Origin: a virus
Strand: one strand, 5' to 3'
Virus record (IMG/VR): IMGVR_UViG_2929074307_000005
DNA: 64,000 nt
In this document: piece after piece, positions 8,217 through 60,667 of the stretch
How positions within the stretch are numbered: the first letter of the stretch is position 1
How the letters are laid out: each line of letters opens with the position of its first letter
Notes under the pieces: generated by a model
What the model was told of the DNA's origin: nothing
What the model saw: the letters and a program-made list of their open reading frames with translations, nothing else
The model's database searches: none
Position numbers and translations under genes: made by a program

Positions 8217-8894
8217 TTAGCGGGTGTTGTACTTGCCAACGACGCGGTGACAGACTGGCCAATCCGCGCGAAATTCCTTGAATTCCTTATGCGGGTTGTA
8301 CTGTTCCAGCATCCATTCGCGGTCATTGAAGCCGACGAGTCGCTTGATGATAGCTTCGTTCTCGTCCATTGCGCTTGTGTGATAAAGAATTACATCTTCA
8401 TCGCGAACCGGCGGCAAATTCGGGTTCACGAGTGCGGTTTCACCCGGACGATAGGCAGGAACCATTGATTCCCCGGACAATAGAAGGCCGTATCCACCTT
8501 TAACGCCCTGCAGTACTGCAGGCATTTTCATATAGCTGATTGGATCAAAGGTGATGATAACGTGTCCATCGCCGCCCTTCGCTGCAGCGTAAACGGGCAG
8601 GCCGCGCTCTTGGCTTACAAGCTGGTCGCCCGGGATTGGTGCAGGTGTAAAAGTATCAGCAATCGGCTTAGCTGATGACGCGGTCATTTCGCCATTGCCG
8701 AAGGCAAGCCAATCCTCATTAAGATCCAGCGCACGAGCAAGGCGGGCTACAAATTCAACACTGGCCCCGCGCTTCCCGCTTTCCAAAAGACTGATCGACG
8801 ACTTGTCTCGCCCAATAAGAGCGGCAAGGTCAGCCTGGCTCATTTCTTTAAGGTCACGCGCCAAACGAAGGCGCTGCGCGAAATCTTTGTCCAT
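8217..8894 (-). CDS. cI: CI-like prophage repressor (HTH_XRE N-domain plus S24 LexA-like peptidase C-domain)
   Basis: HTH MSQADLAALIGRDKSSISLLESGKR. S24 motifs GESMVP (catalytic Ser) and IIKRLVG (Lys). Start taken at MDKDF (8894). Confidence 0.85.
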   Translation of the reverse strand: MDKDFAQRLRLARDLKEMSQADLAALIGRDKSSISLLESGKRGASVEFVARLARALDLNEDWLAFGNGEMTASSAKPIADTFTPAPIPGDQLVSQERGLPVYAAAKGGDGHVIITFDPISYMKMPAVLQGVKGGYGLLLSGESMVPAYRPGETALVNPNLPPVRDEDVILYHTSAMDENEAIIKRLVGFNDREWMLEQYNPHKEFKEFRADWPVCHRVVGKYNTR

Positions 8895-8937
8895 GTTGCG
8901 CTTTTCGCATATTGTTGTGAAAATGTAACGTGCGAAA

Positions 8938-8957
8938 ATGTCACCACATGTTGACAT
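8938..8957. promoter_or_regulatory. Operator palindrome ATGTCAccacatgtTGACAT; TGTCA half-sites recur at ~8968 and ~8980
   Basis: Imperfect 20-bp palindrome overlapping the -35 of the rightward promoter, in the cI-cro intergenic region. Confidence 0.45.
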
Positions 8958-8979
8958 GGATGCGAATCTGTCATATATA
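8951..8979 (+). promoter_or_regulatory. Sigma70-type promoter TTGACA-17 bp-TATATA (PR-like, rightward)
   Basis: Consensus -35 and -10 hexamers with 17-bp spacing. Confidence 0.55.
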
Positions 8980-9428
8980 GGTGTCATCAACCGGCGCAAA
9001 AGACGCTGGACAGTTCGAAGGAGGGCCTACCTCATGATGCCAGAGAACATCCACCCAAGGATATCGGCACTCAATAGATAGAAGCCGCGCTAACGCGCAA
9101 TTGAAACTGAGGAGAGAGCAAATGACCAATTCCGCCGAAAGAAGCGAACCGGCTCTCGTTGAGGCGCCGCCGTAGGATCAATAGGGACGCTGCTGACCTT
9201 AATAGGGTCAGTGGTGCTTTCGGCGTTCCTGAATGTCGAGAGATTTATAGGACGGCGTTGTGAGCCGGCACCACCCGCTGCTCCGCCGTCCTCGTAATAC
9301 CCCGGCTTACACGAGGAGGGCTTGCGCCACTTCTACACCGGGGGTTCCTTCGCGAGTACCACCCCGCGCAGGACAACAGATGGCTTCACCAAAGTCATTT
9401 GTCAACCAACACCACACACGAGGAGATC

Positions 9429-9710
9429 ATGAAAGATTATGAAACCATAGAAGAAGTGCATCGCATGCACGAGGTGGGCGCCAACCCGACAGAGATCGGA
9501 AATGCGCTTAGCTTGCCCAGATCGACGGTAGCTTCAATTCTGCGTCGTCCTATTCCAAAACCTACAGCCGACCGCATTGTCGTGCGGTGCGTTTCGAACG
9601 GTGGATGGTCCACGGCCAATCACTGCGTCAGTTATATCGCAATGCCACGCATCCGTGCGCTGGAAGCCGCGAACGACAATTACGAACAGCCGGGCGCAAT
9701 CGCAGCCTGA
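9429..9710 (+). CDS. HTH DNA-binding early regulator (Cro/CII-like position)
   Basis: HTH EVGANPTEIGNALSLPRSTVASIL; preceded by caccacACACGAGGAGatcATG; C-terminal AANDN. Confidence 0.6.
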   Translation: MKDYETIEEVHRMHEVGANPTEIGNALSLPRSTVASILRRPIPKPTADRIVVRCVSNGGWSTANHCVSYIAMPRIRALEAANDNYEQPGAIAA

Positions 9711-9767
9711 GCCACGTTGGCCCGCATGTGCAGGCCACAGATCAACCTCCTGACTGGAGGAATATCA

Positions 9768-11849: not shown

Positions 11850-11956
11850 ACGCCTTAGCTCTAATAGGCGGGATCGTCGTTTGCGCAATCATCGCCTACG
11901 GGGTCGCGCAGATCGTTGCAAACACCACACCACCAAAAAACACGAGGAGAAAATAA
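11846..11956 (+). CDS. Small membrane peptide (36 aa)
   Basis: LALIGGIVVCAIIAYGV; its 3' end encodes the ACACGAGGAG element of the next gene. Confidence 0.3.
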   Translation: MNALALIGGIVVCAIIAYGVAQIVANTTPPKNTRRK

Positions 11957-12807
11957 TGCGAGGCATCGCGGCACTATTTGCGGGCTTTGTGGCCCTTCTA
12001 GTCACTATCACCGTCGTATTCGGCTCTTGGTACACCATCGACCAAGGCGAAAGAGGCGTGCTGTTGCGCAACGGGGCGGTTGTTGGCTCTGCACAGCCCG
12101 GTCTTGGCTTTAAAACGCCTTGGATTGAGGAGGTTGTGAAGGTGTCTGTGCAGTCACGCGCTCAGATTTACAAGGAAGTGCCCGCTTATTCGAAAGATCA
12201 GCAGTCAGCCATCCTTGCGCTTTCTGTCAATTATCGCATTCCCGCAGATCAGGTGACTGAAGTCTATGGCACGTATGGAGGTGAGGATGGCTTGCTTGCT
12301 CGTCTTGTTGATCGGCGCGTCAATGAAGATCTGAAGACCGTTTTTGGCAGGTTTACCGCTGTGCAGGCCATTCAGGAACGAGGGCGGTTAAATATGGAGG
12401 TTGCGACAGCCGTTCAAAATTCGGTCAAAGGTCCGGTGATTATCGACAGCGTGCAGATCGAAAACATCGACTTTTCCGATGTCTATGAAGCCAGCATTGA
12501 GCAGCGAATGCTTGCGGAAGTCGAAGTGCAGAAACTTCGCCAAAACGCCGAGCGCGAAAAGGTTCAAGCCGAAATCACTGTGACACAGGCAAAGGCCAAT
12601 GCGGACGCTGTGCGTGCTCAATCCAATGCTGAAGCCGAAGCAATCCGTATCAAAGGCGACGCCGAAGCGGCTTCTATCAAGGCACGTGGCGATGCGCTGC
12701 GCGAAAATCCCGGTCTTGTGGCTCTGACGCAAGCCGAGAAGTGGAATGGCCAGTTGCCAACCACGATGTTACCGGGCGGCTCGGTGCCGATGCTGCAGCT
12801 GCGATAA
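11956..12807 (+). CDS. SPFH / band-7 (prohibitin/HflC-like) membrane protein
   Basis: N-terminal transmembrane helix, SPFH core, and C-terminal Ala/Glu-rich coiled coil (AEVEVQKLRQNAEREKVQAEI...). Confidence 0.8.
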   Translation: MRGIAALFAGFVALLVTITVVFGSWYTIDQGERGVLLRNGAVVGSAQPGLGFKTPWIEEVVKVSVQSRAQIYKEVPAYSKDQQSAILALSVNYRIPADQVTEVYGTYGGEDGLLARLVDRRVNEDLKTVFGRFTAVQAIQERGRLNMEVATAVQNSVKGPVIIDSVQIENIDFSDVYEASIEQRMLAEVEVQKLRQNAEREKVQAEITVTQAKANADAVRAQSNAEAEAIRIKGDAEAASIKARGDALRENPGLVALTQAEKWNGQLPTTMLPGGSVPMLQLR

Positions 12808-15395: not shown

Positions 15396-15456
15396 CGCAC
15401 CAACCATGGCGCGGTCACCAGCCGCGCCTGACACCACCAACACGAGGAGAAAACCC

Positions 15457-16515
15457 ATGCGGGTAACGCTTGACCGAGCGCAGCTTGCGCACGCCTTGTC
15501 GACCGTGACAAAGGCAGTTGAGGCCAGAACGACAATTCCGATTCTTGGCAACGTGCTTTTGTCCGCGGACAAAGGACAGCTGAGCATCACTGGCACCAAT
15601 CTCGATCTGGAAATCAGCACCAGTTTGCCGGTTCTGGATAGCCAAGAAGGCACTGTCACAGTTGCGGGTAAGTTGCTTCTGGATATTGCCAAGCGCGCCA
15701 CGAGTGACGTTAATTTGGAAGCCGACGGCAATCATCTGGTCGTTAAATCTGGCAAGAGCCGTTTCAAACTCGACACGCTTCCAGCTGCGGACTTCCCGTC
15801 CTTCAATCGCGGAAGCTTCGACACGACGATCGACATCGATCTAGCCGCGCTTGTTGGTGCGGTTAACTTCGCTGTCAGTAACGAAGACACCCGCTATTAC
15901 CTGAACGGCGTATTTTTGGAAGCGAAGGACGGCCAGATTGTTGCCACGGCAACAGACGGACATCGCCTTGCATCGACACGCATTGAGCAGGAAGCCACGT
16001 TTGCACCCGTTATTCTGCCGAACAAGCTGCTGTCATTGCTGCCCACCGGAGTCGTGTCGGTTTCGCTGTCATCAAACAAGGTGATGGTCGAGGTCGGTTC
16101 GACTGTCATCGTGTCGAAACTCGTCGACGGCACTTATCCAGATTACGAGCGCGTTATTCCAAAGCCCTCGGAGCGTGTCGCTACTCTGTCGGCTAAAGCA
16201 CTGCGCGAAGCAGTCGGCCGCACATCAGTTATCGCCAGCGAGCGTGGGCGCGCTGTGCGCTTATCATTCGCTTCGGATGCTCTGACGTTGAACGTTGCTA
16301 ATCCAGATCGCGGCGATGCGACTGAGGAGATGGAAGTCAACTTCAGTAGCGAGCCGCTGACGATCGGTTTTAACGGCCAATATGTCACCGACCTCATGGC
16401 AGCGTTTGGCGCGGATGAAGTTACGATGTCGATGGCCGATTCCGGTTCGCCTGCGCTGATCACGTCGGCAAGTAGGCCGGGATACAGGTGCGTACTTATG
16501 CCGATGCGGGTTTAG
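15457..16515 (+). CDS. dnaN: DNA polymerase III beta subunit (sliding clamp), phage-encoded
   Basis: N-terminus MRVTLDRAQLAHALSTVTKAVEARTTIPILGNVLL; three-domain length; conserved initiation element upstream. Confidence 0.85.
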   Translation: MRVTLDRAQLAHALSTVTKAVEARTTIPILGNVLLSADKGQLSITGTNLDLEISTSLPVLDSQEGTVTVAGKLLLDIAKRATSDVNLEADGNHLVVKSGKSRFKLDTLPAADFPSFNRGSFDTTIDIDLAALVGAVNFAVSNEDTRYYLNGVFLEAKDGQIVATATDGHRLASTRIEQEATFAPVILPNKLLSLLPTGVVSVSLSSNKVMVEVGSTVIVSKLVDGTYPDYERVIPKPSERVATLSAKALREAVGRTSVIASERGRAVRLSFASDALTLNVANPDRGDATEEMEVNFSSEPLTIGFNGQYVTDLMAAFGADEVTMSMADSGSPALITSASRPGYRCVLMPMRV

Positions 16516-29970: not shown

Positions 29971-30046
29971 GCCCTTGTAGCTCAGTTGGGAGAGCGGCTG
30001 CCTTGTAAGCAGATGGTCCGGGGTTCTATTCCTCGCGAGGGCACCA
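29971..30046 (+). tRNA. tRNA-Thr (anticodon UGU), 76 nt with encoded CCA
   Basis: Cloverleaf folded by hand: acceptor GCCCTTG/CGAGGGC, D-arm GCTC..GAGC, anticodon loop cTTGTaa, T-arm CGGGG/CCTCG; one G-A mismatch in the anticodon stem. Confidence 0.65.
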
Positions 30047-30053
30047 ATTCAAT

Positions 30054-30129
30054 GCGGAGTGGAGAAGTGGTCATCTCGTCTGGTTCATACCCAGAAGACC
30101 GTCGGTTCGAATCCGACCTACCGCAACCA
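30054..30129 (+). tRNA. tRNA-Met-like (anticodon CAU) with an imperfect acceptor stem; possible degenerate phage tRNA
   Basis: Perfect T-arm GTCGG-TTCGAAT-CCGAC and anticodon arm TCTGG-ttCATac-CCAGA. Initiator-like 3' end CCGCAACCA. Acceptor stem has two mismatches. Confidence 0.45.
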
Positions 30130-37992: not shown

Positions 37993-38343
37993 TTAAAGGT
38001 CTATAGAGAGCTCATAAATGCCTAGCGCAGCGAGCACCGGCTTTGAATAAGTAATCTGCCGTATGTTCGTAAGTTCCCACGCCAACCACCCCTCTTCAAA
38101 ATAGTTTGCGCAAGCTGCCACCATATCCGTATGCTGAAACGGCCTGACCGATGCGATCCTCACAATGGCTACAGCTCTGCCGTCTGGATCCTCTTCGCCA
38201 TCGGCTCGCAGGAAACGGTTATTCTCAACGATCAGTAGATCTTCGTCGGGCCGCAGGCTTGGAGACCACCGCCTCACCTCAAGCGTTTTAAGACCATTCG
38301 CGATTCTCAATCCGCTTGGCGCGACAATGGATAAAGCCTTCAT
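37993..38343 (-). CDS. ASCH/PUA-like domain protein (transposon cargo), tentative
   Basis: Size and weak ASCH-like pattern; lies inside the transposon. Confidence 0.4.
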   Translation of the reverse strand: MKALSIVAPSGLRIANGLKTLEVRRWSPSLRPDEDLLIVENNRFLRADGEEDPDGRAVAIVRIASVRPFQHTDMVAACANYFEEGWLAWELTNIRQITYSKPVLAALGIYELSIDL

Positions 38344-38474
38344 GCTGTGCTCCTTCCTGTAAAGAGCGGTTTGAACACTTCTTGCTGCCTGCCCGATACG
38401 ACGACGACATTCGCACTGGCACGACCATGAACACTTATGTTGTCAGTTCGCTCCGGTCGGAACTAACTCCAAAC

Positions 38475-41450
38475 TCATGCAGCACGCAACAATCGACTGG
38501 TGCGGCGCAACGGCCTGAAGCCGTCTGTCATTTGCTGCTCTGCATCCCAGGAATAGATCCCGGTGAGGTTTATGTGTTCCCAACTGAGTGGCGAGACATG
38601 TTTCAATAACTCGTCTGGAATATTCCGGCCTTGTTGTCGCAAATGTGCGGCAGCACGACTGAGATAGACCGTATTCCAGTAAACAATTGCGCTCACTACC
38701 AGATTGAGGCCGGATGCTCGAAATGCCTGGCTGTCGTAGGATCGATCACGAATTTCTCCGCGCTCATGGAAAAAGACAGCGCGTTTCAGCTTGTGGGCGG
38801 CTTCGCCCTTGTTGAGACCAGCCTGACAACGCCGGCGCAGCGCCGGATTTGAATACCACTCGATCATGAACAGCGTGCGCTCAATGCGACCTAGCTCACG
38901 CAAAGCTTTTGCAAGTTCGCTGGATTTCGGAGAAGCAGAGAACCTTTTCAGGATCGTTGACGGCGCGACTGTGCGTGTTGTGATCGACGCTGCCAAACGT
39001 AACAGGTCATCCCAATGTTCGAGAATGAGGGCGCTGTTGATCGGTGCGCCGATATGACTTTCCAGCGCCGGATAGGCATCGGCCTTCTCGAATGTGTGGA
39101 ATTTTCGGTCCTTGATGTTTCGAAGCCTCGGCGCAAAACGCTTGCCGATCAGGGCGAAGATCGCAAAAACATGATCGCTCGCGCCGCCGGTATCGGTAAA
39201 ATGCTCCTCGATTTCCAGAACCGTGTCGTGATCAAACAGGCCGTCGAGGACATAGACGGCCTCGCTTTCAGTCGGGCTGATTGGCAATATGCCAAAATAT
39301 CCGTACTGGTCAGAGAGATGGCTGTAGAATTTCGAACCCGGTTCACTGCCATAGTGCAGATTGATATCACCGCGCTTGGCGGCTCGGTCGCTGGCACGGA
39401 AGAATTGCCCATCGGATGATGCGGTTGTTCCATCGCCCCAGAGCAGCGAATGCGGATGGCGCATATGAGCGTCTGTTATACAAGCCTGCGCCGCCCTGTA
39501 GGTTTCAGATCTGGCGTGAAAGGTGCGCATCCACCCGATCTGGTGCGCGCTGATCCCTTTCGACGCTCCTGCCATGCGTTTGGGTCCGAGGTTCGTGCCG
39601 TCCGCCAGAACGCCGGCGAGCATTGCGGAGATATTTTGCGGCGTATCTCCCGTCCGGACATGCGTGAACTGGTCGGCGAACCCGGTCCAGTCATGTACTT
39701 CCCTGAGAAGGTCGGGTACTTCGATCAACGGGTACATGTCGCTGATTTCGATGTTCAGTTCATCGGCGGCGGCGGGAATATCGCTCGTACGCGGCGTCAC
39801 GATCAAGGTTCCGGCTTTCAGCCTGACGTGATCAAGCTTTCTATTGCGAGCGCGATAAGCCAGGCGCTTGAGATTAAAGTCCATCATCTGCCGGACTTCC
39901 GTGAGCCAGGCTGCGCCGTCCCCTTGAACACCGAGACCGAGTTTGCCTTCATCTTTCATGGCGACGAAAGCAGGCTTAGGCATGAGATGTTCATCAATCG
40001 GCCGAAATGATCGGCTCCCGTCAACCCAGACATCCCCCGAGCGTAGCCGATCGCGCAAATGGGCCAGAGTTGCAATCTCGTAAAGCCGCCGATCCGGCTT
40101 TCCGTCCACGAATATCAGCCTTTTCTCAGATGACCCAAGATGGCCGACCGGCACGCGATCCGGTAGAACACGCCTCCCTTCCGTATAAAGCCCTTTCAGG
40201 GTTGAAAGCGCTGCCAGAAGCGGATCATACGTTCGGTGTGAGTGAAACGTGAACGTCTGAAGGAACACGCCTGCGAACTTTCGAACATTCGCGTATTGTT
40301 CTGCCGCCGTCGCCAAAGGCGATGTGTCAGCGTTCTCCACCATGGCTTCAAGGTTAGGCTTGATCTGGAGCAGCTTATGCCAGCCAACCTCCCTGTTTAT
40401 CACTCTGATTGCATCTTCATCAGCATCGTTGGCGTTCTGCAAGGCGACAATTGTGTCGAGGAATAATTTGAGCGCTCTGGATGTTTCCATCCGAGCATTC
40501 ATATGCCGCTGCTTTTTCCTGTTATTGGCTTTTGAGAATAGCCGACCGATCAGCTTGATGAACATCGTTACCGCATCGTCGGTGAGCTTCTGGCCGAGCT
40601 TGATAAGCTGAGTCACAATTGTAGCGCGCCGACGACTGGAACTGAAGTCACTGGCAAGCCATGCCGGAGTGGCATCGCCCTCGCGGATCATCTGATCCCA
40701 CCGACCGGCGGGAATGCGAAGTTGCAGCCGGGGATCAATCTCAAGATGGCGTAGGAACGCTATACGCTCCGTCATTCCGATCAGATTTCCTGCTCCCGGG
40801 GCGTCAGGAGCGGACCGCAACCAATGAAACCGCGTCTGACGGATCGCCGGGTCAACGTCCAATAGGATATCAAGAGCTTCCAGCTTTTCATCACTCAGAT
40901 CAGCAATGAGCGCACTCTCAGCGCGCCGACGAGCAATAGCACGGGCTGCGAGCCCCATTCGCTCGATCATATTCAATGCCGGTAGGAGAACGCATTGTTC
41001 GCGGAATGTGGCGATAATCGCTTTTGCTATCGACAACCCTTTATCTGTTTGGGAGGCTGCTTCAATACCCGCACGCAAAGCGGCGCGACGGTCTTCAGCG
41101 GTTGCACTCCGCAGATCGAGATAGCGCTGCAAATGTGCGATATGTTCGCGTCGGGTTTCCTCACGCGTTGCGTATAAACTAAATAACCGTGGATCCACGT
41201 TGATTTGCTCGGCGATATAGTTGAGTAGCATCGGTGGGGGAACTTCATTCGGCAGGAGCGCTCTTCCAGGGTAGCGCATCAGGCAAAGTTGCACAGCAAA
41301 GCCAAGCTGATTTTGCTTGCGCCGACGAAGCTCTATTTCCAGGCGATCCGCCGGAGAAAGCGAATAATGTCTGATCAAACTATCTTCGTCGGTAGGGATG
41401 TTGAAAAGCTCATGTCGGTCCTGAATTTTTAGAAGCGTCCGCTTGGCCAT
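38475..41450 (-). CDS. tnpA: Tn3-family transposase
   Basis: 991 aa; N-terminus [37 protein letters not shown] is typical of TnpA. Confidence 0.9.
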
Positions 41451-41602
41451 TCTTTACTCTCGCAACTCTGTACTACCGGTCTACCCCCTGTACGGAATCG
41501 TCCGATTGCGTACAGGGGCAAAACACCCTGTCCACAAATTATCTTGACATGGTTTCGAACAGTGGAGATATTTCGGACATCCTATTCGGACGAAATGAGC
41601 CC
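41451..41602. promoter_or_regulatory. Res site and divergent promoters between tnpA and tnpR
   Basis: Inverted repeats CTGTACGG...CGTACAGG in the divergent intergenic region. Confidence 0.5.
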
Positions 41603-42208
41603 ATGCCACGTACCTTTGCCTATGTTCGCGTATCCACGACCGGACAGACCACCGAAAACCAGATCCAGGAAATTAAAGCTGCCGGTTTCCATGTCGAACC
41701 GCGCCGGATCGTCACCGAGACGGTTTCCGGCAGCACGGCCATTGCGCAGCGCCGTGGTTTCTCCCGATTATTGGATAAGATGGAGGCCGGTGACATTCTG
41801 ATCGTCACCAAGCTCGACCGCCTTGGTCGTGATGCTATCGATGTAAGTAGTACCGTCAAAGCCCTCGCAGAAATGGGCGTCAGGGTTTACTGCCTCGCAT
41901 TAGGTGGTGCTGATCTAACCAGTTCAGCCGGCACAATGACCATGAATGTGCTGAACGCCGTGGCGCAGTTCGAGCGCGACCTTCTGATCGAACGGACGCA
42001 ATCAGGCCTCAAGCGCGCCAAGTCGGAAGGGAAATCTTTGGGTCGTCCATCCACACTTGACGATAAACAAAAGCAGGACGTCCTTGCCGATCTGGTGGAA
42101 GGAATAAGTATTTCAGGCATTGCTCGAAAATTTTCCACGAGCAGACAAACAATCATGCGCATCCGGAATCAGGCTGCTGAAAACGTTGGGAAAATGAATG
42201 GCAAATGA
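41603..42208 (+). CDS. tnpR: Serine recombinase / resolvase
   Basis: YVRVSTTGQ catalytic Ser motif; C-terminal HTH. Confidence 0.85.
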   Translation: MPRTFAYVRVSTTGQTTENQIQEIKAAGFHVEPRRIVTETVSGSTAIAQRRGFSRLLDKMEAGDILIVTKLDRLGRDAIDVSSTVKALAEMGVRVYCLALGGADLTSSAGTMTMNVLNAVAQFERDLLIERTQSGLKRAKSEGKSLGRPSTLDDKQKQDVLADLVEGISISGIARKFSTSRQTIMRIRNQAAENVGKMNGK

Positions 42209-42752
42209 ATCCTGGCAATCGTTTAAGATGCTTACTGAGCGCTTGGAACTGCGTCTGGTCATGGTATCAGATAGCGTTGCACTGCAAAAGCTAATGACAC
42301 CTGCGATCAGTCAATGGGTGGCAGTTTGGCCATACCCTCTTACGCAAGAAGCGGCAGAGAGGATAATTGATAAAGCGCTTATTGGGCATTCAGTGCAACG
42401 CACGCTTCCACTGGTAATCGTGAACCAAGCTGAAAATCAGGTTATTGGTTGGATCAAGGTCGATATTGAAGAATGTGATGGAAAGCGAATTGGCGAAATC
42501 GGCTACTGGCTTTCTGAGGAAGTTCACGGCATGGGATTTGGGTATGAAGCTGCCCAAGGACTGATTGCTGCGTGTTTTGAAGAATTGGAAATTCACTCTA
42601 TGCGAGCAGGCGCGCAGACCGCAAATGCCGTTTCTCATAATCTCCTGATGAAACTTGGAATGCACAGGACTGGCGAGCAACTTGTCTTTGCGCCCGCTCG
42701 TGGCCGAGATGAATTGTGCACCTATTTCGAACTGGAAAGGTCAAGAACCTAA
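42198..42752 (+). CDS. GNAT N-acetyltransferase (RimJ/RimL-like)
   Basis: GYWLSEEVHGMGFGYEA acetyl-CoA binding region. Confidence 0.7.
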   Translation: MANESWQSFKMLTERLELRLVMVSDSVALQKLMTPAISQWVAVWPYPLTQEAAERIIDKALIGHSVQRTLPLVIVNQAENQVIGWIKVDIEECDGKRIGEIGYWLSEEVHGMGFGYEAAQGLIAACFEELEIHSMRAGAQTANAVSHNLLMKLGMHRTGEQLVFAPARGRDELCTYFELERSRT

Positions 42753-42803
42753 TTTTTGGGCCATCTCGCCGATCATTGATTTATCTTCCACAAAAATCAG
42801 AGT

Positions 42804-43748
42804 TTGCAGCAAATGGATCACTTCTCGCTAAGCGCACAAAAGCTCTCGGAAAACCTGGAAACCGATATCGAGTTTGTTCTAAGCCACAGCGCGCCCGTCC
42901 AGTTTGCCGATCTGACTTCCGGAGCAAAGAATTCCAAGGCAATTCGCCTGGTAGATGAATCCCGACAACATGCAGGATCCTTCAAATATAGGGGAGCCAT
43001 ACTCGGAGTTAGCAAACATCCGAAAGGCGTTGTTGCTTGCGGTTCCGGAAACTTCCCCATAGCCGTCGGGTTGGCTGCATCAAAGCTTGGCATTCCAGCG
43101 ACAGTCGTTATGCCTGACGATGCACCTGCTGCAAAACGAGAAATGGCCCTGAATTCTGGTTCGGAAGTCCTTCTCGTACCACGATCGGACTTTGTTAATG
43201 ATGCGGAACTGGAAGCGAAAGCGCGGGGATTGCCATTGTTGCATCCGTTCAGGGACGCATCCATGCTGGTCGGGAGCTGTTCCCTTGGTGTGGAACTGGC
43301 TCATGCAATGAAGGATGATGCTTCTCCTGACGATGCCATTGTCGTAGCTTGCGGTGGCGGTGGATTGGCAGCAGGAACCTCATTGGGGCTCAGGATCAGC
43401 GGGATCGAGAACGATATTTATGTAGCTGAGCCTGAGCATTATCCACGCCTGTATGCTGCTTTTAACGTGTCGCATCCTGTGGAGATCGTCGCTCAAGAGC
43501 AGACAATCTGTGATGCTCTGAGAGTTACCGAAATAGGCTCGCTTGCTTTTAGCATTCTCCAGAAAATTGGGGTCCGTACACTAGCAGCATCAGACGCAGG
43601 CGTCATCGAAGCGCAAGCGCATATGGCCCGTGAAACAGGCATACAAGCGGAGCCCAGCGGAGCGTTGGCTTTGGCAGCGATTTCCGAGCAAGAACTTCCA
43701 AGGCGCTATCACAGGCTTTGGGTGATCGTATGTGGCAGCAACGTTTGA
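42804..43748 (+). CDS. PLP-dependent Ser/Thr dehydratase-family enzyme
   Basis: PLP-lysine motif SFKYRGA; Gly-rich CGGGGLAAG. Confidence 0.7.
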   Translation: MQQMDHFSLSAQKLSENLETDIEFVLSHSAPVQFADLTSGAKNSKAIRLVDESRQHAGSFKYRGAILGVSKHPKGVVACGSGNFPIAVGLAASKLGIPATVVMPDDAPAAKREMALNSGSEVLLVPRSDFVNDAELEAKARGLPLLHPFRDASMLVGSCSLGVELAHAMKDDASPDDAIVVACGGGGLAAGTSLGLRISGIENDIYVAEPEHYPRLYAAFNVSHPVEIVAQEQTICDALRVTEIGSLAFSILQKIGVRTLAASDAGVIEAQAHMARETGIQAEPSGALALAAISEQELPRRYHRLWVIVCGSNV

Positions 43749-55548: not shown

Positions 55549-56937
55549 ATGGCTGTTTTGTCAGATTACACCTCTGGCACGATCACGCTCGCCAATGGCT
55601 CAACGGCTGTGACCGGAACCGGCACACTGTTCGACGTGGCGAAGTTTCGCGAAGGTGATACGCTTCAAATTGAGAACCTGACGGCTGTTATTGCCAGTGT
55701 CGATAGCAATACCCAATTGACGCTGACTGCGCCGTGGACCGGCACTTCGCTGACGGATGCGCCCTATAGAGCGCGATATTTGCCAGACGGCGCGCGCGTA
55801 ACTGCACAGGCGACAACGCTGATCGAATTGCTCGGCAACGGCGTTCTGTCCAACCTTGCTGAACTTGGCGTCGAGGATGGCAAGGTGCCTGTCGGTAATG
55901 CTGCTGGTGAGTATGAGCTGCACGACTATTTAGATGACCCGAACGGCACATTGGCGAAGTTTGCAGCGCTGACAGTAACTGCCCGTCAAATCTTTCAGAC
56001 GGATGAAAACGGCGCGCTGAAGGCTTTGGCTCTTCTGGCGAATAAATTCATCTATACGGATGCAAATAAAGACTTAGCACAGGGCGATATCACGCCTTGG
56101 GCAATCACAATGCTGGGTCTGACGGGTACGGCTGATCGCTTGCCCTATCTAAATGCAACCAACACATCAGCGTTGACGCCCCTGACTCCTTTTGCTCGGT
56201 CAATTTTGGATGATGCGAATGCGGCAGCGGTTCGCACAACTCTTGGGCTTGGTACAGCTGCAACGCGTGATGTTGGAACGAGCGGTTCGGTAATTCCAGT
56301 TCTGAACGCTGTAAATACTTGGAGTGGGCTCCAACGATTACAACTCGACGGTAATGCCCCTTTGGGCATTAATATGCGTTCGACTGCAAACACAGGAACA
56401 ACAGGGTCTTTTAACATATCTCCTGTACTTCGATTACAAATACCCAGAGGTGGGTTTGGTGTTTCAGATGGGGCGTATGGTCAGATACAATATGAAGAGA
56501 ATGTCGGAACATCAAACCAATTAACGATCAATATCAATGGGTTCAGTTCTAATAGATACTGGCAATTTCGCGATGACGGCAGCGCCTACGCGCTTGCGGG
56601 TTCTTGGGTCAACTCTTCTGACGGACGATTAAAAACCGAGGTTAAAAATATCCACGATCCGCTCGAAGCCTTGAAAAAGCTAAACGGCTGCACTTGGACC
56701 CGCATTGACACTGGTGCAAACGGTATAGGCCTAATTGCTCAGGACGCAGAAGAGGCGGTTCCAGGATGCTCACAGGTCAGCGAAAAAGAGAAGACGTTGC
56801 CAGACGGCACGACAATCACCGATGTGCTGGCGCTTGATACTGGTGGTGTGGCTGCGGCTGTGCTCGTGGAGGCGTGTAAGATGATGCTAGAACGCATTGA
56901 ACAGCTCGAAAGCCGCATTACGGAGCTGACCGCTTGA
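55549..56937 (+). CDS. Tail fibre with a C-terminal S74 intramolecular-chaperone auto-processing domain
   Basis: DGRLKTEV...LNGCTWTRIDTG...IAQDAEEAVP, typical of Peptidase_S74. Confidence 0.7.
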   Translation: MAVLSDYTSGTITLANGSTAVTGTGTLFDVAKFREGDTLQIENLTAVIASVDSNTQLTLTAPWTGTSLTDAPYRARYLPDGARVTAQATTLIELLGNGVLSNLAELGVEDGKVPVGNAAGEYELHDYLDDPNGTLAKFAALTVTARQIFQTDENGALKALALLANKFIYTDANKDLAQGDITPWAITMLGLTGTADRLPYLNATNTSALTPLTPFARSILDDANAAAVRTTLGLGTAATRDVGTSGSVIPVLNAVNTWSGLQRLQLDGNAPLGINMRSTANTGTTGSFNISPVLRLQIPRGGFGVSDGAYGQIQYEENVGTSNQLTININGFSSNRYWQFRDDGSAYALAGSWVNSSDGRLKTEVKNIHDPLEALKKLNGCTWTRIDTGANGIGLIAQDAEEAVPGCSQVSEKEKTLPDGTTITDVLALDTGGVAAAVLVEACKMMLERIEQLESRITELTA

Positions 56938-57054
56938 GCGAAGCGCTAGCAGCCTAGCGTAGAAGCCTTCTTGGCTGAACTATCTGCTTTCACGTGGAAT
57001 GGATCAGTGCGACGTTGCTATGATGAGCGACGCCGCACAACTCCAAGGATTTTC

Positions 57055-58446
57055 TTAATAGGTTGGAGATGAAATTCGTGCTGATTTATCCATCCTTTTG
57101 CGGTACTCGTCACGCAAGTCTTCTCGTAGAAAGCTTAAAGCCCAGTTGTGAGTTGCACTCTCAATCTCTGGAAGATATTCTCCAATTGATCCGTCAAACT
57201 TGTCATTTATCACGCCGCGCAAGTAGTCAAATATCTCAAAGTGGATAAACAAACGCTCGTCGCTAAAGCTAACGTCTTGGCCAGGCCGACCAAGTCGATA
57301 AAAATAGTGAGCTTCCGGTATCACAACTACAGATGTAGCTAGAGAAAGCGCAAGATAGTTGAATGGCAAATCGTCAAAGCGCTTCAAATTTTCGTTGAAA
57401 TCAATTTCGTACTTTTCTAGAAAATTTCTACGATAAATACGACGCCAGATTTGAGGTGCGTTATTGATGTAGTCTGGTTTATGGCTCGTCTCGTATGGAA
57501 AAGAGATCGCCCCAAATGGAGGTTCGGACACAATTTCGGCCTCTCCACCTTCCTCGTAAGCTTTGACGAAACCGCATTGACCGACATCCTTCATTCCAGG
57601 CAAGACAGACGTAATTAAGTCTTCAAACATATTTGGTGAAACCCAATCATCCCCGTCCACGAACCCTACATAAAGCCCCGACGCTACTTGCAGTCCTGCA
57701 TTCCGGGCTGATGCGCAGCCTCCATTAGCTTTATGGATGACTTTTAGCTTTCCTGGGTAGCTTGCTGCCCATTGATCAGCAATTTCTCCGGATCTGTCTT
57801 TAGTTCCATCATCAACAACAATAATCTCGATCTCCTCAAGTGTTTGATTACATAAAGTTTCCAGACATTGAGGAAGATATTTTTCAACTCCATAAGCTGG
57901 CACTATTACAGATACGTAAATTTTGGATTCATGATTTGAACTACTTAAAGTACCGCTCTCTAAAATTAGGTGCACATGGAATTTTTCAGCAATCAACGAA
58001 AGATCGCGATGCAATTGATAAGCACTCCGAAGAAAACCTTGAGCGGCTCCCGCAAGGTAGCGGATTTTTATGCAGGATTTGAGTAGTGAATCTAGCAGTT
58101 CATCGGTCAACCAAGTTTCGTCTACACGACAAAAATCAATAGATTCATCACCAATATGATCCCGGAGTGCCGCTAAACTATCTATATATATTACTCCGGT
58201 CGACCTTTGAGATCGAACTGGATCCAAAACGAATATCCTAGCAAGAGGGTAGTTCTCTTTTATAAAAGCCGTTTCCAATCCTGACCGATCACCCACAATA
58301 AGACACCGAGGTTGCGGCGTTGATGGCGAAGTTATTGGTCCATAGAAGGAGTCCGCAATGCGGCGAAGGTCGCTGCCCAGTAATGATTTCTCAATCCCGT
58401 GCTTCTCTAAAGTTTGTGCAACTTTTTTCCAATGATAAGGGATCAT
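57055..58446 (-). CDS. Family 2 glycosyltransferase with an extra N-terminal ~165-aa domain (low GC)
   Basis: VSVIVPAYGVEKYL...IIVVDDGTKD GT2 signature. Confidence 0.75.
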   Translation of the reverse strand: MIPYHWKKVAQTLEKHGIEKSLLGSDLRRIADSFYGPITSPSTPQPRCLIVGDRSGLETAFIKENYPLARIFVLDPVRSQRSTGVIYIDSLAALRDHIGDESIDFCRVDETWLTDELLDSLLKSCIKIRYLAGAAQGFLRSAYQLHRDLSLIAEKFHVHLILESGTLSSSNHESKIYVSVIVPAYGVEKYLPQCLETLCNQTLEEIEIIVVDDGTKDRSGEIADQWAASYPGKLKVIHKANGGCASARNAGLQVASGLYVGFVDGDDWVSPNMFEDLITSVLPGMKDVGQCGFVKAYEEGGEAEIVSEPPFGAISFPYETSHKPDYINNAPQIWRRIYRRNFLEKYEIDFNENLKRFDDLPFNYLALSLATSVVVIPEAHYFYRLGRPGQDVSFSDERLFIHFEIFDYLRGVINDKFDGSIGEYLPEIESATHNWALSFLREDLRDEYRKRMDKSARISSPTY

Positions 58447-59603
58447 TGCTTACCTCGGTATTTGATCATTCGAACGGGGGCCATCATTCGAGATACTAAC
58501 TCGTTCTTGATCACCGTTTTTTGTTGCATATTTTTTACCAAAGGCGCTTCAATAGCAGAACTATCCAGTGGTCTGCCGCCAATTAATCTAAGTAAACCCA
58601 ACTCGTCTTTTTTACCAGAAAGTGAGCTGAAATTGCGCTCTCTTTCATTCTCACTGTAGCGCATTGCATACAGCTCCCACCAATCAGCAGGTAATCCGTC
58701 AATCAAGCTTAAGAATTGTCGGATATAGCTATGTTTCAGTAGTGATGGACAATACTCACCACACCAATGCACTAGTCTGGAAAGCTGACCGCACAGGTTG
58801 GCGCCCGCATCGGAAGAAAGCGTCATCACGTATTTAGAATCAACAATTTCTTTGACTCCAGTTAGGATATCAAACCTACTTTTTCCTTTTGATGCGGTAA
58901 TTTGGCCTGCTCTATCGATTCTATAGAGCAACAAGTAATCGTTCAAAATTCCTATTCGTCCTGCGCGCGCTATCGCGCGAGAATGCGGAGCCACGTCTTC
59001 AAAAATGACGCCCTCTGGAAATTGAGTAATTTCGCGATCATAGAAATCTTTTCTAAAAACACGAATTGAAGAGTTGGGTTCAATACGAAATAACCGCGGC
59101 TCGCGGTAAATGTTTGTTACAAGAAAGTCTCGGTTATTGAGAATCTTATCTAAGATGAAATGATCGCCAAATAATTGGCTTCTCAGTGTCAGATTGCTGA
59201 AACTTTTTGCTCGTGCTAAAACAAGATCGAGATTATTTGCTTCCGCTAAGTCAACCATCGTACGATATACGAAAGACTGTACAAGATCATCGCTGTCAAG
59301 AAAGGCAATATACTTGCCGCGAGCAAATTGAGCGCCGGTATTACGGGCGGCTCCAAGGCCGCCATTCTCTTTTTGTACGAAACGTACGTTGATTGAGTTA
59401 CTATTGATCCATTGAAGAATTTTTTCTGCAGATGAATCAGGGCTGCCGTCATCAACAATTACAATTTCAAAATCATCACCTGCCGAAGTCGCGATCGACT
59501 GTAGGGTCTCTAATACGTATCGTTCTGTATTATAGACAGGAACAATTACAGATAGGAGCTTTTCGCCATCACTAGTACGCTCCATGACAATTCTGTGTAC
59601 CAT
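58443..59603 (-). CDS. Family 2 glycosyltransferase (low GC)
   Basis: LSVIVPVYNTERYV...IVIVDDGSPD; ATGA overlap with the downstream glycosyltransferase. Confidence 0.75.
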   Translation of the reverse strand: MVHRIVMERTSDGEKLLSVIVPVYNTERYVLETLQSIATSAGDDFEIVIVDDGSPDSSAEKILQWINSNSINVRFVQKENGGLGAARNTGAQFARGKYIAFLDSDDLVQSFVYRTMVDLAEANNLDLVLARAKSFSNLTLRSQLFGDHFILDKILNNRDFLVTNIYREPRLFRIEPNSSIRVFRKDFYDREITQFPEGVIFEDVAPHSRAIARAGRIGILNDYLLLYRIDRAGQITASKGKSRFDILTGVKEIVDSKYVMTLSSDAGANLCGQLSRLVHWCGEYCPSLLKHSYIRQFLSLIDGLPADWWELYAMRYSENERERNFSSLSGKKDELGLLRLIGGRPLDSSAIEAPLVKNMQQKTVIKNELVSRMMAPVRMIKYRGKQ

Positions 59604-59620
59604 TTTTTACCCTAGATCGC

Positions 59621-59800
59621 TTAGGCAGAATGCCAGATTCGGATTAAGATAGCTGTAGTTACGCTCGCTAAGCCGAAAGAGAATAACAAGACAGAGATTG
59701 AGACAAGAATGTCTGTGCCGTAAGGAACGAATCCCAATTTGCAAAACAGGTACAACAATGCTCCAAACATTGTAATCACTAATCCGTTTCTACCACCCAT
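59621..59800 (-). CDS. Small two-transmembrane peptide (~59 aa) upstream of the glycosyltransferases; coordinates approximate
   Basis: Open frame MGGRNGLVITMFGALLYLFCKLGF... read by hand. Confidence 0.3.
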   Translation of the reverse strand: MGGRNGLVITMFGALLYLFCKLGFVPYGTDILVSISVLLFSFGLASVTTAILIRIWHSA

Positions 59801-59972
59801 AGTTGCACTCTCTTCTAAATGAATAACATTCGCGTGCGTATACCTAGAAGAGAGATTGATTAAAAGGGTTGCTCGTAGAAAATGTGAATTTAAAAATACT
59901 GTGTGAATTTTGCGACAGTTTTTAATGGTTGATCGGCAGCCAAGAACAGTTTGAATATGCCCCCTATGTAGA

Positions 59973-60242
59973 TCACTTAGGGCGCTGGGATTTTATTTTT
60001 TTGAATTCCAGCTGGTAGCCTAGGCGATGAAGAACTAATGCGGTGTAACGCATAGATGGGTTAGTGTTGCGACCGAGAAGTTGACTAGCGCGAGCCCTTG
60101 TTACACCTAAAGCCGCGCCTAAATCAGCATGTGTCATCTTCTTTTCCGCTAGCATTACATTCAAAACTTCGTGGAATTTATCAACCGTATCCTGAGCAAT
60201 CTTTTCCTCTGTCTCGCTCCACTCTCTCATTATTCTGGTCAT
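59973..60242 (-). CDS. XRE-family HTH transcriptional regulator
   Basis: MTHADLGAALGVTRARASQLLGRN. Confidence 0.7.
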   Translation of the reverse strand: MTRIMREWSETEEKIAQDTVDKFHEVLNVMLAEKKMTHADLGAALGVTRARASQLLGRNTNPSMRYTALVLHRLGYQLEFKKIKSQRPK

Positions 60243-60667
60243 TCTACCCTACTCAATGTTCGATCTGGTTATTCTTGCTGCAAACGCCGTAGATCATTGG
60301 CCTGTAAAAGTGGCTAACTACCATGATTACGGTTTGAGGCAATCAAATTGAACAACGAATAAGTGCGTGGCGCTGCCATTGATGCGGTTTTTTTCATGCC
60401 GAAAGAAAACCCCGACCGGTTGTGTGCGGTCAGGGCTACGCAGGTCTCCAGTCGCGTCTCGAAGATGAACTGCGCTCGCCAAGCTTACACCCACCCTGGA
60501 ATGAAGAAAACCCCGGCGACCGCAAAGCCCACCGGGGTAATGCGCCTTGCTCTGATGTGGGTCAGGACAGCTTGCAAGGTCATCATCTCACAATAATAGG
60601 AAAACACAATGGCACGACGCATAAACGCGGTGGCGCTTTCGCTCATTTAATCTCCAAGGACAATCAA

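Follow-up and report, generated by a model that had tools for sequence, protein, structure and literature searches.

The 64,000-nt stretch of DNA considered here (IMG/VR record IMGVR_UViG_2929074307_000005), termed the window, is a prophage over its whole length and carries an integrase gene (1-1254), a gene for a CI-type repressor with an S24 peptidase domain (8217-8999), replication genes, two tRNAs, and head and tail genes. Its source is Ochrobactrum sp. BH3, which belongs to the Ochrobactrum/Brucella group, and the window maps onto contig SLYR01000008.1. The subject of this report is a cassette of three genes situated between the tail fibre and the lysis genes of the prophage, which encodes a 59-residue mini-protein with two hydrophobic segments and two glycosyltransferases, designated GT-B and GT-A. 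The cassette is bordered by a gene for a helix-turn-helix (HTH) protein.

Four open reading frames (ORFs), those of the cassette and the HTH gene, occupy the minus strand of the region 57055-60242, opposite to the late genes, exactly where an initial annotation of this DNA had placed them (Table 1). That annotation also described the run as AT-rich and as lying between the tail fibre and the lysis genes, and both points are borne out by the GC profile and by the Peptidase_S74/PHROG matches of the fibre and the phrog_181 match of the endolysin. The GC content is 0.40-0.45 at 57-60 kb, the lowest stretch in the 64 kb, compared with 0.53 for the whole window, and the GC content at third codon positions is 0.37-0.38 in GT-A and GT-B but 0.59-0.63 in the neighbouring phage genes. 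The GT-B protein is identical (100%) to a protein encoded on contig SLYR01000008.1 of Ochrobactrum sp. BH3. Identical copies of the cassette are present in two further independent assemblies (L008 and L009; such handles denote the loci compared), and its cluster at 90% identity has only 3 members.

Table 1. Positions of the cassette genes and of the features on either side in the window.
Feature	Position	Strand	Properties
Tail fibre, left flank	55549..56937	+	C-terminal Peptidase_S74 (intramolecular chaperone) domain, Pfam PF13884 and PHROG tail-fibre families; 462 aa called in source genome
Intergenic region between convergent tail fibre and GT-A	56938..57054		Imperfect 13-bp palindrome 57007-57019 / 57026-57038; left slot junction; candidate terminator
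GT-A, WbmW-like, 463 aa	57055..58446	-	N-terminal Rossmann-like domain, GT2 catalytic domain, C-terminal helical region
GT-B, WbmV-like GT2, 386 aa	58443..59603	-	PF00535; paralogue of GT-A
59-aa two-transmembrane mini-protein, first cassette gene	59621..59800	-	Two hydrophobic segments; homologues upstream of glycosyltransferase pairs
AT-rich leader, cassette-specific, presumed promoter region	59801..59950	-	TGTGAATTT twice and a 10-bp inverted repeat
89-aa HTH (XRE-like) protein, phage-backbone border gene	59973..60242	-	PHROG 1373; Pfam HTH_26 sub-threshold
Endolysin, right flank, 287 aa as called in source genome	60668..61531	+	phrog_181 endolysin, E 4e-56

The glycosyltransferase pair and its Klebsiella relatives

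GT-A and GT-B (names of genes, not of folds) both belong to glycosyltransferase family 2 (GT2) as defined in CAZy and Pfam. The PF00535 scores are 120.6 bits for GT-A and 110.5 bits for GT-B at a gathering cut-off of 23.3, the DxD/acidic motifs of the family are present, and both enzymes are assigned to the GT-A fold. The two GT2 enzymes of the initial annotation, for which HMM classification had been proposed as a check, are confirmed by these scores. In the GT-A protein, the motif DGDD (264-267) contains the invariant residues D264, D266 and D267, and D358-D359 is likewise invariant among homologues; in the GT-B protein, the family alignment identifies the motif DSDD (103-106) with invariant D103, D105 and D106, together with D52 and E202-D203. 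The two proteins are paralogues with 25% identity over 251 aa. GT-A has an additional N-terminal domain, also described in the initial annotation, which is Rossmann-like and extends over aa 1-172 (nt 57931-58446); it is followed by the GT2 Pfam match (aa 179-345) and a helical C-terminus. A class I S-adenosylmethionine-dependent (FkbM-like) methyltransferase was considered for this N-terminal domain and rejected, as neither a match to a methyltransferase family nor a specific structural match was found. The start codon of GT-A overlaps the stop codon of GT-B (ATGA), and the overlap or close spacing of the cassette genes suggests translational coupling. No transmembrane segment is present in either glycosyltransferase, the maximum Kyte-Doolittle values of a 19-residue window being 1.31 and 0.79. 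Both are soluble cytoplasmic GT2 enzymes with intact catalytic motifs.

These properties bear on the classification as a gtr-like module, which the initial annotation had put forward. The GtrABC modules known from phages of Shigella and Salmonella are found near the tail or attachment end of the prophage, are low in GC, convert the serotype of the host, and share the GT2 catalytic domain with the cassette. They use a periplasmic route, in which a GtrB-like GT2 would produce a bactoprenol-linked sugar that is flipped and then transferred in the periplasm. The PHROG families named "GtrB-like O-antigen conversion" match both glycosyltransferases (E 7e-12 and 7e-14), and seroconversion modules typically sit, like the cassette, between tail and lysis genes. 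Nevertheless, the PHROG matches span only the generic N-terminal nucleotide-binding half of GT2 (profile ~2-140 of 309), and the C-terminal transmembrane helices that anchor GtrB in the membrane are missing from both enzymes. The flippase GtrA is absent as well: no ORF of the region matches PF04138 (GtrA_DPMS_TM), and the only membrane ORF, which has no family match, is a 59-aa protein with two transmembrane segments rather than the four of GtrA. A polytopic GtrC-like ORF is not found in 56.9-60.3 kb, where no ORF of at least 100 aa occurs on either strand of 56938-60242 besides the two glycosyltransferases. With GtrA, GtrB and GtrC all lacking and both GT2 enzymes soluble and cytoplasmic, a gtr-like mechanism is extremely improbable.

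Characterised relatives of the pair are found in Klebsiella. A tblastn search against plasmids detects full-length GT-A homologues on many K. pneumoniae plasmids; one of these, pLH375-5 (NZ_CP035201.1, L104), carries genes for a GT2 of 438 aa, a glycosyltransferase of 487 aa and a pyruvyltransferase, with insertion sequence (IS) elements on either side. GT-B is 37% identical to the product of the first gene (E 5e-80) and GT-A is 33% identical to that of the second (E 1e-84) over residues 18-448, the N-terminal domain included. Since the pyruvyltransferase has the N-terminus MKINLVGAVGGGNFGDEFILNCCIAEH, in agreement with the Kp WbmX rows of an alignment that Kelly et al. 2023 give in their supplement (PMC10629545), we take the pLH375-5 locus to be wbmVWX. 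Judged by sequence, GT-B and GT-A are homologous to WbmV and WbmW over their full length, and the order of the genes is conserved; the cassette has the adjacent, collinear pair with full-length homology that marks the WbmV/WbmW type, the reference locus being identified indirectly through WbmX. We also note that a wbmVWX-type locus is carried by pLH375-5 and 18 other Klebsiella plasmids, both small mobilisable and larger ones, with IS1, IS5 and IS3 in the flanks, and that the genes are annotated there merely as generic glycosyltransferases and a pyruvyl transferase.

The O2c antigen is a second repeat-unit domain placed on the non-reducing end of O2a (PMC10629545). Citing Kelly et al. 2019 JBC, that paper states that WbmV and WbmW are needed for the O2c backbone and that WbmX adds the terminal pyruvate. 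The chain is exported by a non-specific ABC transporter (PMC10629545). We favour with moderate confidence the reading that the cassette, carried here by a prophage, is related to the wbmVW locus that provides Klebsiella with a second O-antigen domain, and that it would extend the host chain.

The main live alternative to such a polymer is the decoration of side branches, in which each GT2 would add a single sugar, as a branch or cap, to the undecaprenyl-diphosphate-linked O-antigen of the host, to its capsule or to another carrier-linked glycan in the cytoplasm; the epitopes would be altered without the building of a new repeat-unit domain. Precedents are TarP, which is prophage-encoded, and TarS of S. 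aureus and RmlT of L. monocytogenes, all soluble GT2 enzymes that glycosylate wall teichoic acid. They differ from the present pair in being single enzymes of Gram-positive bacteria that add single sugars to a teichoic-acid acceptor, at 17-23% identity, with neither a partner glycosyltransferase nor a mini-protein. The closest characterised homologues of GT-B and GT-A, full-length and in the same order, are the backbone-building WbmV and WbmW. The strict pairing of the two paralogous glycosyltransferases, seen in at least 10 loci, suits a polymerase that alternates between two sugars, and the frequent linkage to enzymes that modify chain termini fits a polymer. Single-sugar decoration is considered unlikely on these grounds.

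The loci in which homologous pairs are found provide a further view of their function. The three-gene unit of mini-protein, GT-B-like and GT-A-like genes recurs in a Brucella gallinifaecis prophage (L001), where the mini-protein is present although gene calling passed over it, in metagenomic contigs from a phage that has a tail fibre with 82% identity to that of the window (L090, L091 and L094), in a mobilisable element with a MobA relaxase that joins a pyruvyltransferase to the pair (L002-L005), and in the chromosome of Brackiella oedipodis (L006), where the pair is found among genes for Wzm/Wzt, Glf, RgpF and a pyruvyltransferase. In Brackiella, Serratia liquefaciens and K. aerogenes, whose pairs are more distant (33-44% and 36-37% identity), the two genes close classical ABC-transporter O-antigen loci. 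The order in the rfb locus of Serratia liquefaciens is wzm, wzt, glf, three glycosyltransferases, pyruvyltransferase and the pair, followed by gnd and the his operon; in K. aerogenes it is wzm, wzt, glf, three glycosyltransferases and the pair, adjoining his. In Acetobacter the pair is accompanied by a pyruvyltransferase. The neighbouring glycosyltransferase is a GT-B homologue in every context of the pair. A pyruvyltransferase stands beside the pair in L002, L006, L095, L096 and L104, a Capsule_synth (KpsC/KpsS-type) protein in L001, L090, L093 and L094, and an FkbM methyltransferase in addition in L001, L090 and L094.

This company also weighs on a third explanation, according to which the glycosyltransferases modify the tail fibre or other virion proteins, or act in lytic growth with effects on host range or on evasion of immunity and defence. 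Glycosylation of virions by phage GT2 enzymes is known in mycobacteriophages. The cassette adjoins the tail fibre, and the cassettes of L090 and L001 share the strand of the tail genes and follow tail-fibre sequence at a distance of 60-240 nt. On the other hand, homologous pairs reside in chromosomal rfb loci, a Klebsiella plasmid and a mobilisable element, none of them with phage structural genes, and the cassette of the window is on the strand opposite to the late genes. The membrane mini-protein and the linked pyruvyl-, Kdo-like and methyl-transferases fit polysaccharide assembly. Virion glycosylation is regarded as highly improbable.

The cassette shows no DNA similarity to deposited phages, and the wider 24-kb region gives a single 53-bp match to a Sinorhizobium phage. 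A tblastn search of GT-A against deposited phages yields matches to the catalytic domain only, at no more than 35.6% identity, with the N-terminal domain unmatched. Scans of IMG/VR with GT-B alone and with the family alignment return single distant GT2 genes, with no pair, mini-protein or HTH gene; among the matches listed from a scan of representative genomes with the GT-B family alignment, there are only distant GT2 enzymes, with 25-49% identity over the catalytic half. The pair is carried by no deposited phage and by no IMG/VR contig reached by these DNA, tblastn and profile scans. PADLOC finds no defence-system match.

The variable slot and the mini-protein

Comparison with related prophages by blastn defines the borders of the cassette. 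The left breakpoint is at 56874-56910, the end of the tail-fibre gene, and the right breakpoint is at 59951, 22 nt past the HTH stop codon; the variable part, ~56938-59950, comprises the mini-protein, GT-B and GT-A. In prophages with other cargo, nucleotide identity is 88-91% over the HTH segment 59951-60408, and the main blocks of the lysis region are 76-90% identical with short non-matching gaps between them. Two B. pituitosa prophages (L099 and L100), in which the endolysin, HTH protein and tail fibre are 92%, 91% and 73% identical to those of the window, hold in this slot (L099 7001-13143; L100 7001-11083) genes for a TylF-type O-methyltransferase, a 245-aa protein of unknown kind, a polysaccharide pyruvyltransferase and a different GT2 (376 aa). 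L099 additionally encodes a 678-aa protein without a Pfam match beside the tail fibre. The slot of L090 contains the mini-protein, GT-B, GT-A, a Capsule_synth protein and an FkbM methyltransferase. The composition of the cassette differs from that of the backbone (GC 0.42-0.43 vs 0.53), and the cargo varies between otherwise homologous phages. The cassette is a low-GC accessory cassette in a slot whose glycan-modifying cargo varies among related prophages, and the description as a low-GC moron in the initial annotation agrees with the dip in GC, the opposite strand and the other glycan cargo at the same place in those prophages.

The glycosyltransferase cassette of the window is inverted relative to those of L090 and L001. 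Directly upstream of the cassette, L001 contains a 76-aa ORF (9510-9737) that is 80% identical to the C-terminal 71 residues of the window tail fibre, while the fibre gene of L001 itself is otherwise only 32% similar. This ORF looks like what is left of a fibre C-terminus that moved together with the cassette, or like the trace of a recombination event at the border of the slot.

The HTH protein scores 19.6 bits with HTH_26, below the cut-off of 22, matches PHROG 1373 "transcriptional regulator" with E 1e-8, and has no NCBIfam match. Its cluster at 90% identity has 16 members, some of which are named "helix-turn-helix transcriptional regulator" by NCBI. A tblastn search of phages found no relative, and a pattern scan of representative genomes and IMG/VR confirmed none. 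Because the gene is kept at 91% beside different cargo and the homology starts at 59951, it is assigned to the conserved phage backbone as a border gene of the slot and not to the cassette as an operon partner. The proposal that the glycosyltransferase genes are "under an adjacent XRE regulator" finds no support in this comparison, since the HTH homology block continues into the lysis genes and is shared with prophages of other cargo, and in L090 the HTH gene (84% identical) and the cargo are convergent, with the HTH gene at the distal border of the slot. The gene is always directed into the slot, with co-directional cargo behind it in two of the three architectures, and might conceivably have a role in driving or controlling the expression of the cargo.

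The mini-protein is the least familiar component. It has no match in Pfam, PHROG, NCBIfam or PADLOC, and its two hydrophobic segments agree with the two-transmembrane peptide claimed initially. Homologues of 59 aa are located directly upstream of the glycosyltransferase pair in L090 (59% identity), L002 (58%), L001 (51%) and Brackiella (L006, 26%), and the protein is kept in five loci with a length of 59 residues in all. The four alphaproteobacterial copies share the C-terminal motif IRIW-x-(S/A)-A, from which the Brackiella copy diverges. Nucleotide differences between the genes are concentrated at codon position 3 (for instance 20/12/43), and the ORF is therefore a genuine coding sequence; the substitution pattern is that of a gene under purifying selection. 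The gene (window 59621-59800; L007 9632-10000) is annotated neither in the source genome nor in that of B. gallinifaecis. The exact sequence is absent from a collection of 15 billion proteins, an exhaustive phmmer search among 1.84 billion representatives returned one related cluster only, and a word-index search gave no candidates.

The substitution pattern of this small gene argues against the possibility that the cassette is inert or decaying cargo, a hitch-hiking remnant in a host without a suitable acceptor and with no phenotype. Most other loci combine the pair with terminal-modification genes, which are missing here, and the inversion relative to L090 and L001 and the cluster of only three members would fit a remnant. 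However, the three ORFs are intact with invariant catalytic residues, the overlapping or closely spaced genes suggest translational coupling, and the cassette recurs without change in L008 and L009. An inert cassette is, in our estimate, quite improbable.

Proposed function in the lysogen

A change of surface polysaccharide is the best reading of the cassette, because its enzymes are homologous to characterised O-antigen-diversifying enzymes, and a serotype-converting module is probable. Of the initial proposal of a gtr-like module for modification of surface glycan or O-antigen, the glycan part is supported by the homology to WbmV/WbmW and the glycan cargo of the slot, and the gtr-like part falls. 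In a mechanism modelled on the Klebsiella second-domain locus, GT-B and GT-A would act in the lysogen at the cytoplasmic face of the inner membrane on the undecaprenyl-diphosphate-linked O-polysaccharide of the host, or on a capsule made likewise. By adding two sugars alternately, they would build a new repeat-unit glycan on the non-reducing end of the host chain, and the hybrid chain would be exported and attached by the ABC transporter and ligase of the host. The chain would be modified in the cytoplasm, ahead of its export, rather than in the periplasm. The 59-aa hairpin membrane protein might tether or organise the soluble glycosyltransferases at the membrane, the weakest step of the scheme, and the HTH border gene would at most supply read-through transcription or regulation. 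The new outer epitope would change the serotype and probably mask the receptor of this phage and of related ones. Such protection against superinfection is a reasonable expectation, since the adjacent tail fibre is a likely receptor-binding protein and the slot always holds glycan-modifying genes; we regard superinfection blocking by the cassette as plausible.

Several observations weigh against this second-domain reading. The reference locus on pLH375-5 was identified through fragments of WbmX rather than through WbmV/WbmW reference sequences, and at 33-37% identity to WbmV/WbmW neither sugar nor acceptor specificity can be transferred. The window contains no WbmX-like or other terminal-modification enzyme, and no ORF of the cassette matches PS_pyruv_trans. 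No mini-protein accompanies the pair in L093, Serratia, K. aerogenes, Acetobacter or the Klebsiella plasmid locus, and its role as a tether or organiser is a guess. A consensus scan gave no convincing promoter upstream of the mini-protein gene and no convincing terminator. Finally, the cassette of L090 follows the tail fibre on the same strand with a gap of 60 nt, and late lytic transcription is possible there.

The relation to wbmVWX can be described more closely. Both loci have two adjacent, collinear, paralogous GT2 genes of the GT-A fold, whose products agree over nearly their full length, both are on mobile DNA unlinked to the main rfb locus, and a pyruvyltransferase gene, arranged as in wbmVWX, accompanies relatives of the window pair. 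The window differs in the absence of the pyruvyltransferase and in the presence of the 59-aa two-transmembrane gene ahead of the pair, which is not found in Klebsiella. The vehicle is a Brucellaceae prophage slot between tail fibre and lysis genes in the one case and an IS-flanked plasmid segment in the other, and WbmV has a longer C-terminal tail (438 aa vs 386 for GT-B).

The wbbY-wbbZ locus of Klebsiella O1 (D-galactan II) is similar in being an unlinked mobile locus through which an ABC-transporter-dependent O-antigen receives a second repeat-unit glycan while still in the cytoplasm. WbbY is reportedly a dual-domain protein, a GT-B plus a GT111 GT-A domain, and not a GT2 pair. The locus differs from the pair considered here in that WbbY is described as a single protein encoded alongside WbbZ (PMC10629545). 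The locus sits between transposable elements, and a phage-borne example, taken from phage genome BK049963.1, is functional (PMC10629545).

A precedent in the same family of bacteria is Brucella GI-2, horizontally acquired phage-related DNA that carries the O-polysaccharide glycosyltransferases wboA/wboB (PMC12144129). It resembles the window in joining phage-related DNA to such glycosyltransferases but is another island with another integration site. The enzymes encoded by wboA and wboB of GI-2 are of GT4 type and do not form a GT2 pair.

Phage- or plasmid-borne loci for second O-antigen domains are already known from Klebsiella (wbbYZ, wbmVWX). The present locus differs from them in the Brucellaceae host group, the prophage moron slot, the extra conserved mini-protein and the lack of a terminal pyruvyltransferase. 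The structure of the O-polysaccharide in Brucella and Ochrobactrum sets serology, phage sensitivity and host interaction. If the second-domain reading is true, the in-cell route to a second glycan domain, so far understood from Klebsiella and including a single wbbYZ copy on a phage, is also in circulation among temperate phages of Alphaproteobacteria. The variable cargo of a conserved slot would then represent a natural set of alleles on phages that edit their own receptor, and the mini-protein missed by annotation would be a concrete candidate for an accessory component of soluble glycosyltransferase complexes. Should the cassette have no phenotype, it is just one more glycosyltransferase moron.

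A further-reaching proposal joins two statements. The first is that the mini-protein is an obligatory subunit, a membrane tether or gate to the ABC exporter, of one branch of the WbmVW-type O-antigen capping polymerases. The second is that Brucella/Ochrobactrum prophages reserve the slot bounded by tail fibre and HTH gene for the exchange of a kit of enzymes that modify the O-antigen end, by which the phages re-cap the Brucellaceae O-antigen and rewrite their own receptor. The proposed kit would consist of the glycosyltransferase pair and, as optional parts, a beta-Kdo-type transferase, a methyltransferase, a pyruvyltransferase or a TylF methyltransferase. Taken together, these statements form a tentative proposal that may hold, though we doubt it.

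Leader sequence and other features of the prophage

The initial annotation had reported direct repeats at ~59880-59925 that look like operators. The repeats exist, as TGTGAATTT occurs exactly twice (59883-59891 and 59902-59910, 19 nt apart) in the 150-nt leader specific to the cassette, but this count is not above chance, 0.85 occurrences being expected in the window and two or more being found in 21 of 100 shuffles. The sequence is absent upstream of homologous cassettes elsewhere, and the reading as operators is not upheld. A 10-bp perfect inverted repeat, CTCTCTTCTA / TAGAAGAGAG, is located at 59808-59817 / 59845-59854 with 27 nt between its arms, and is likewise not conserved in other cassettes. 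Its 3' arm overlaps the Shine-Dalgarno region of the mini-protein gene. The corresponding RNA hairpin folds with -22.5 kcal/mol (z = -1.9), marginally better than shuffled sequence, and Rfam finds nothing near threshold in 56.8-60.8 kb. Alignment of the regions upstream of the five mini-protein genes reveals no conserved element, and for this reason neither the repeats nor the hairpin over the Shine-Dalgarno region can be called a conserved operator or RNA switch. The arrangement TTCACA-18 nt-TTTAAT on the gene strand, beginning in the second copy of TGTGAATTT and seen by eye, is a plausible candidate for a sigma-70-like promoter. The palindrome downstream of GT-A was also seen by eye.

Between the HTH gene and the start of the endolysin gene lies a 53-aa ORF (60485-60646, minus strand), which is called in the source genome and weakly conserved in L100; a terminator-like hairpin (60408-60437) follows it. 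In the middle of the structural module of the prophage, a transposon of the Tn3 family is apparently inserted at 37993-43748. Its genes are those of a Tn3 DDE transposase (38475-41450, on the minus strand, with E 2e-145), a resolvase (41549-42208), a GNAT acetyltransferase (42198-42752) and a PLP-dependent enzyme (42804-43748). The same zone has an ORF with an ASCH domain (37993-38343), and the GC content falls to 0.48 at 42-43 kb. The two tRNAs, tRNA-Thr(TGT) and tRNA-Met(CAT), are 6 nt apart at 29971-30129, shortly before the packaging and head genes. The prophage also encodes an SPFH/Band 7 protein (11881-12807) and a full-length homologue of the DNA polymerase III beta-clamp, DnaN (15406-16515).

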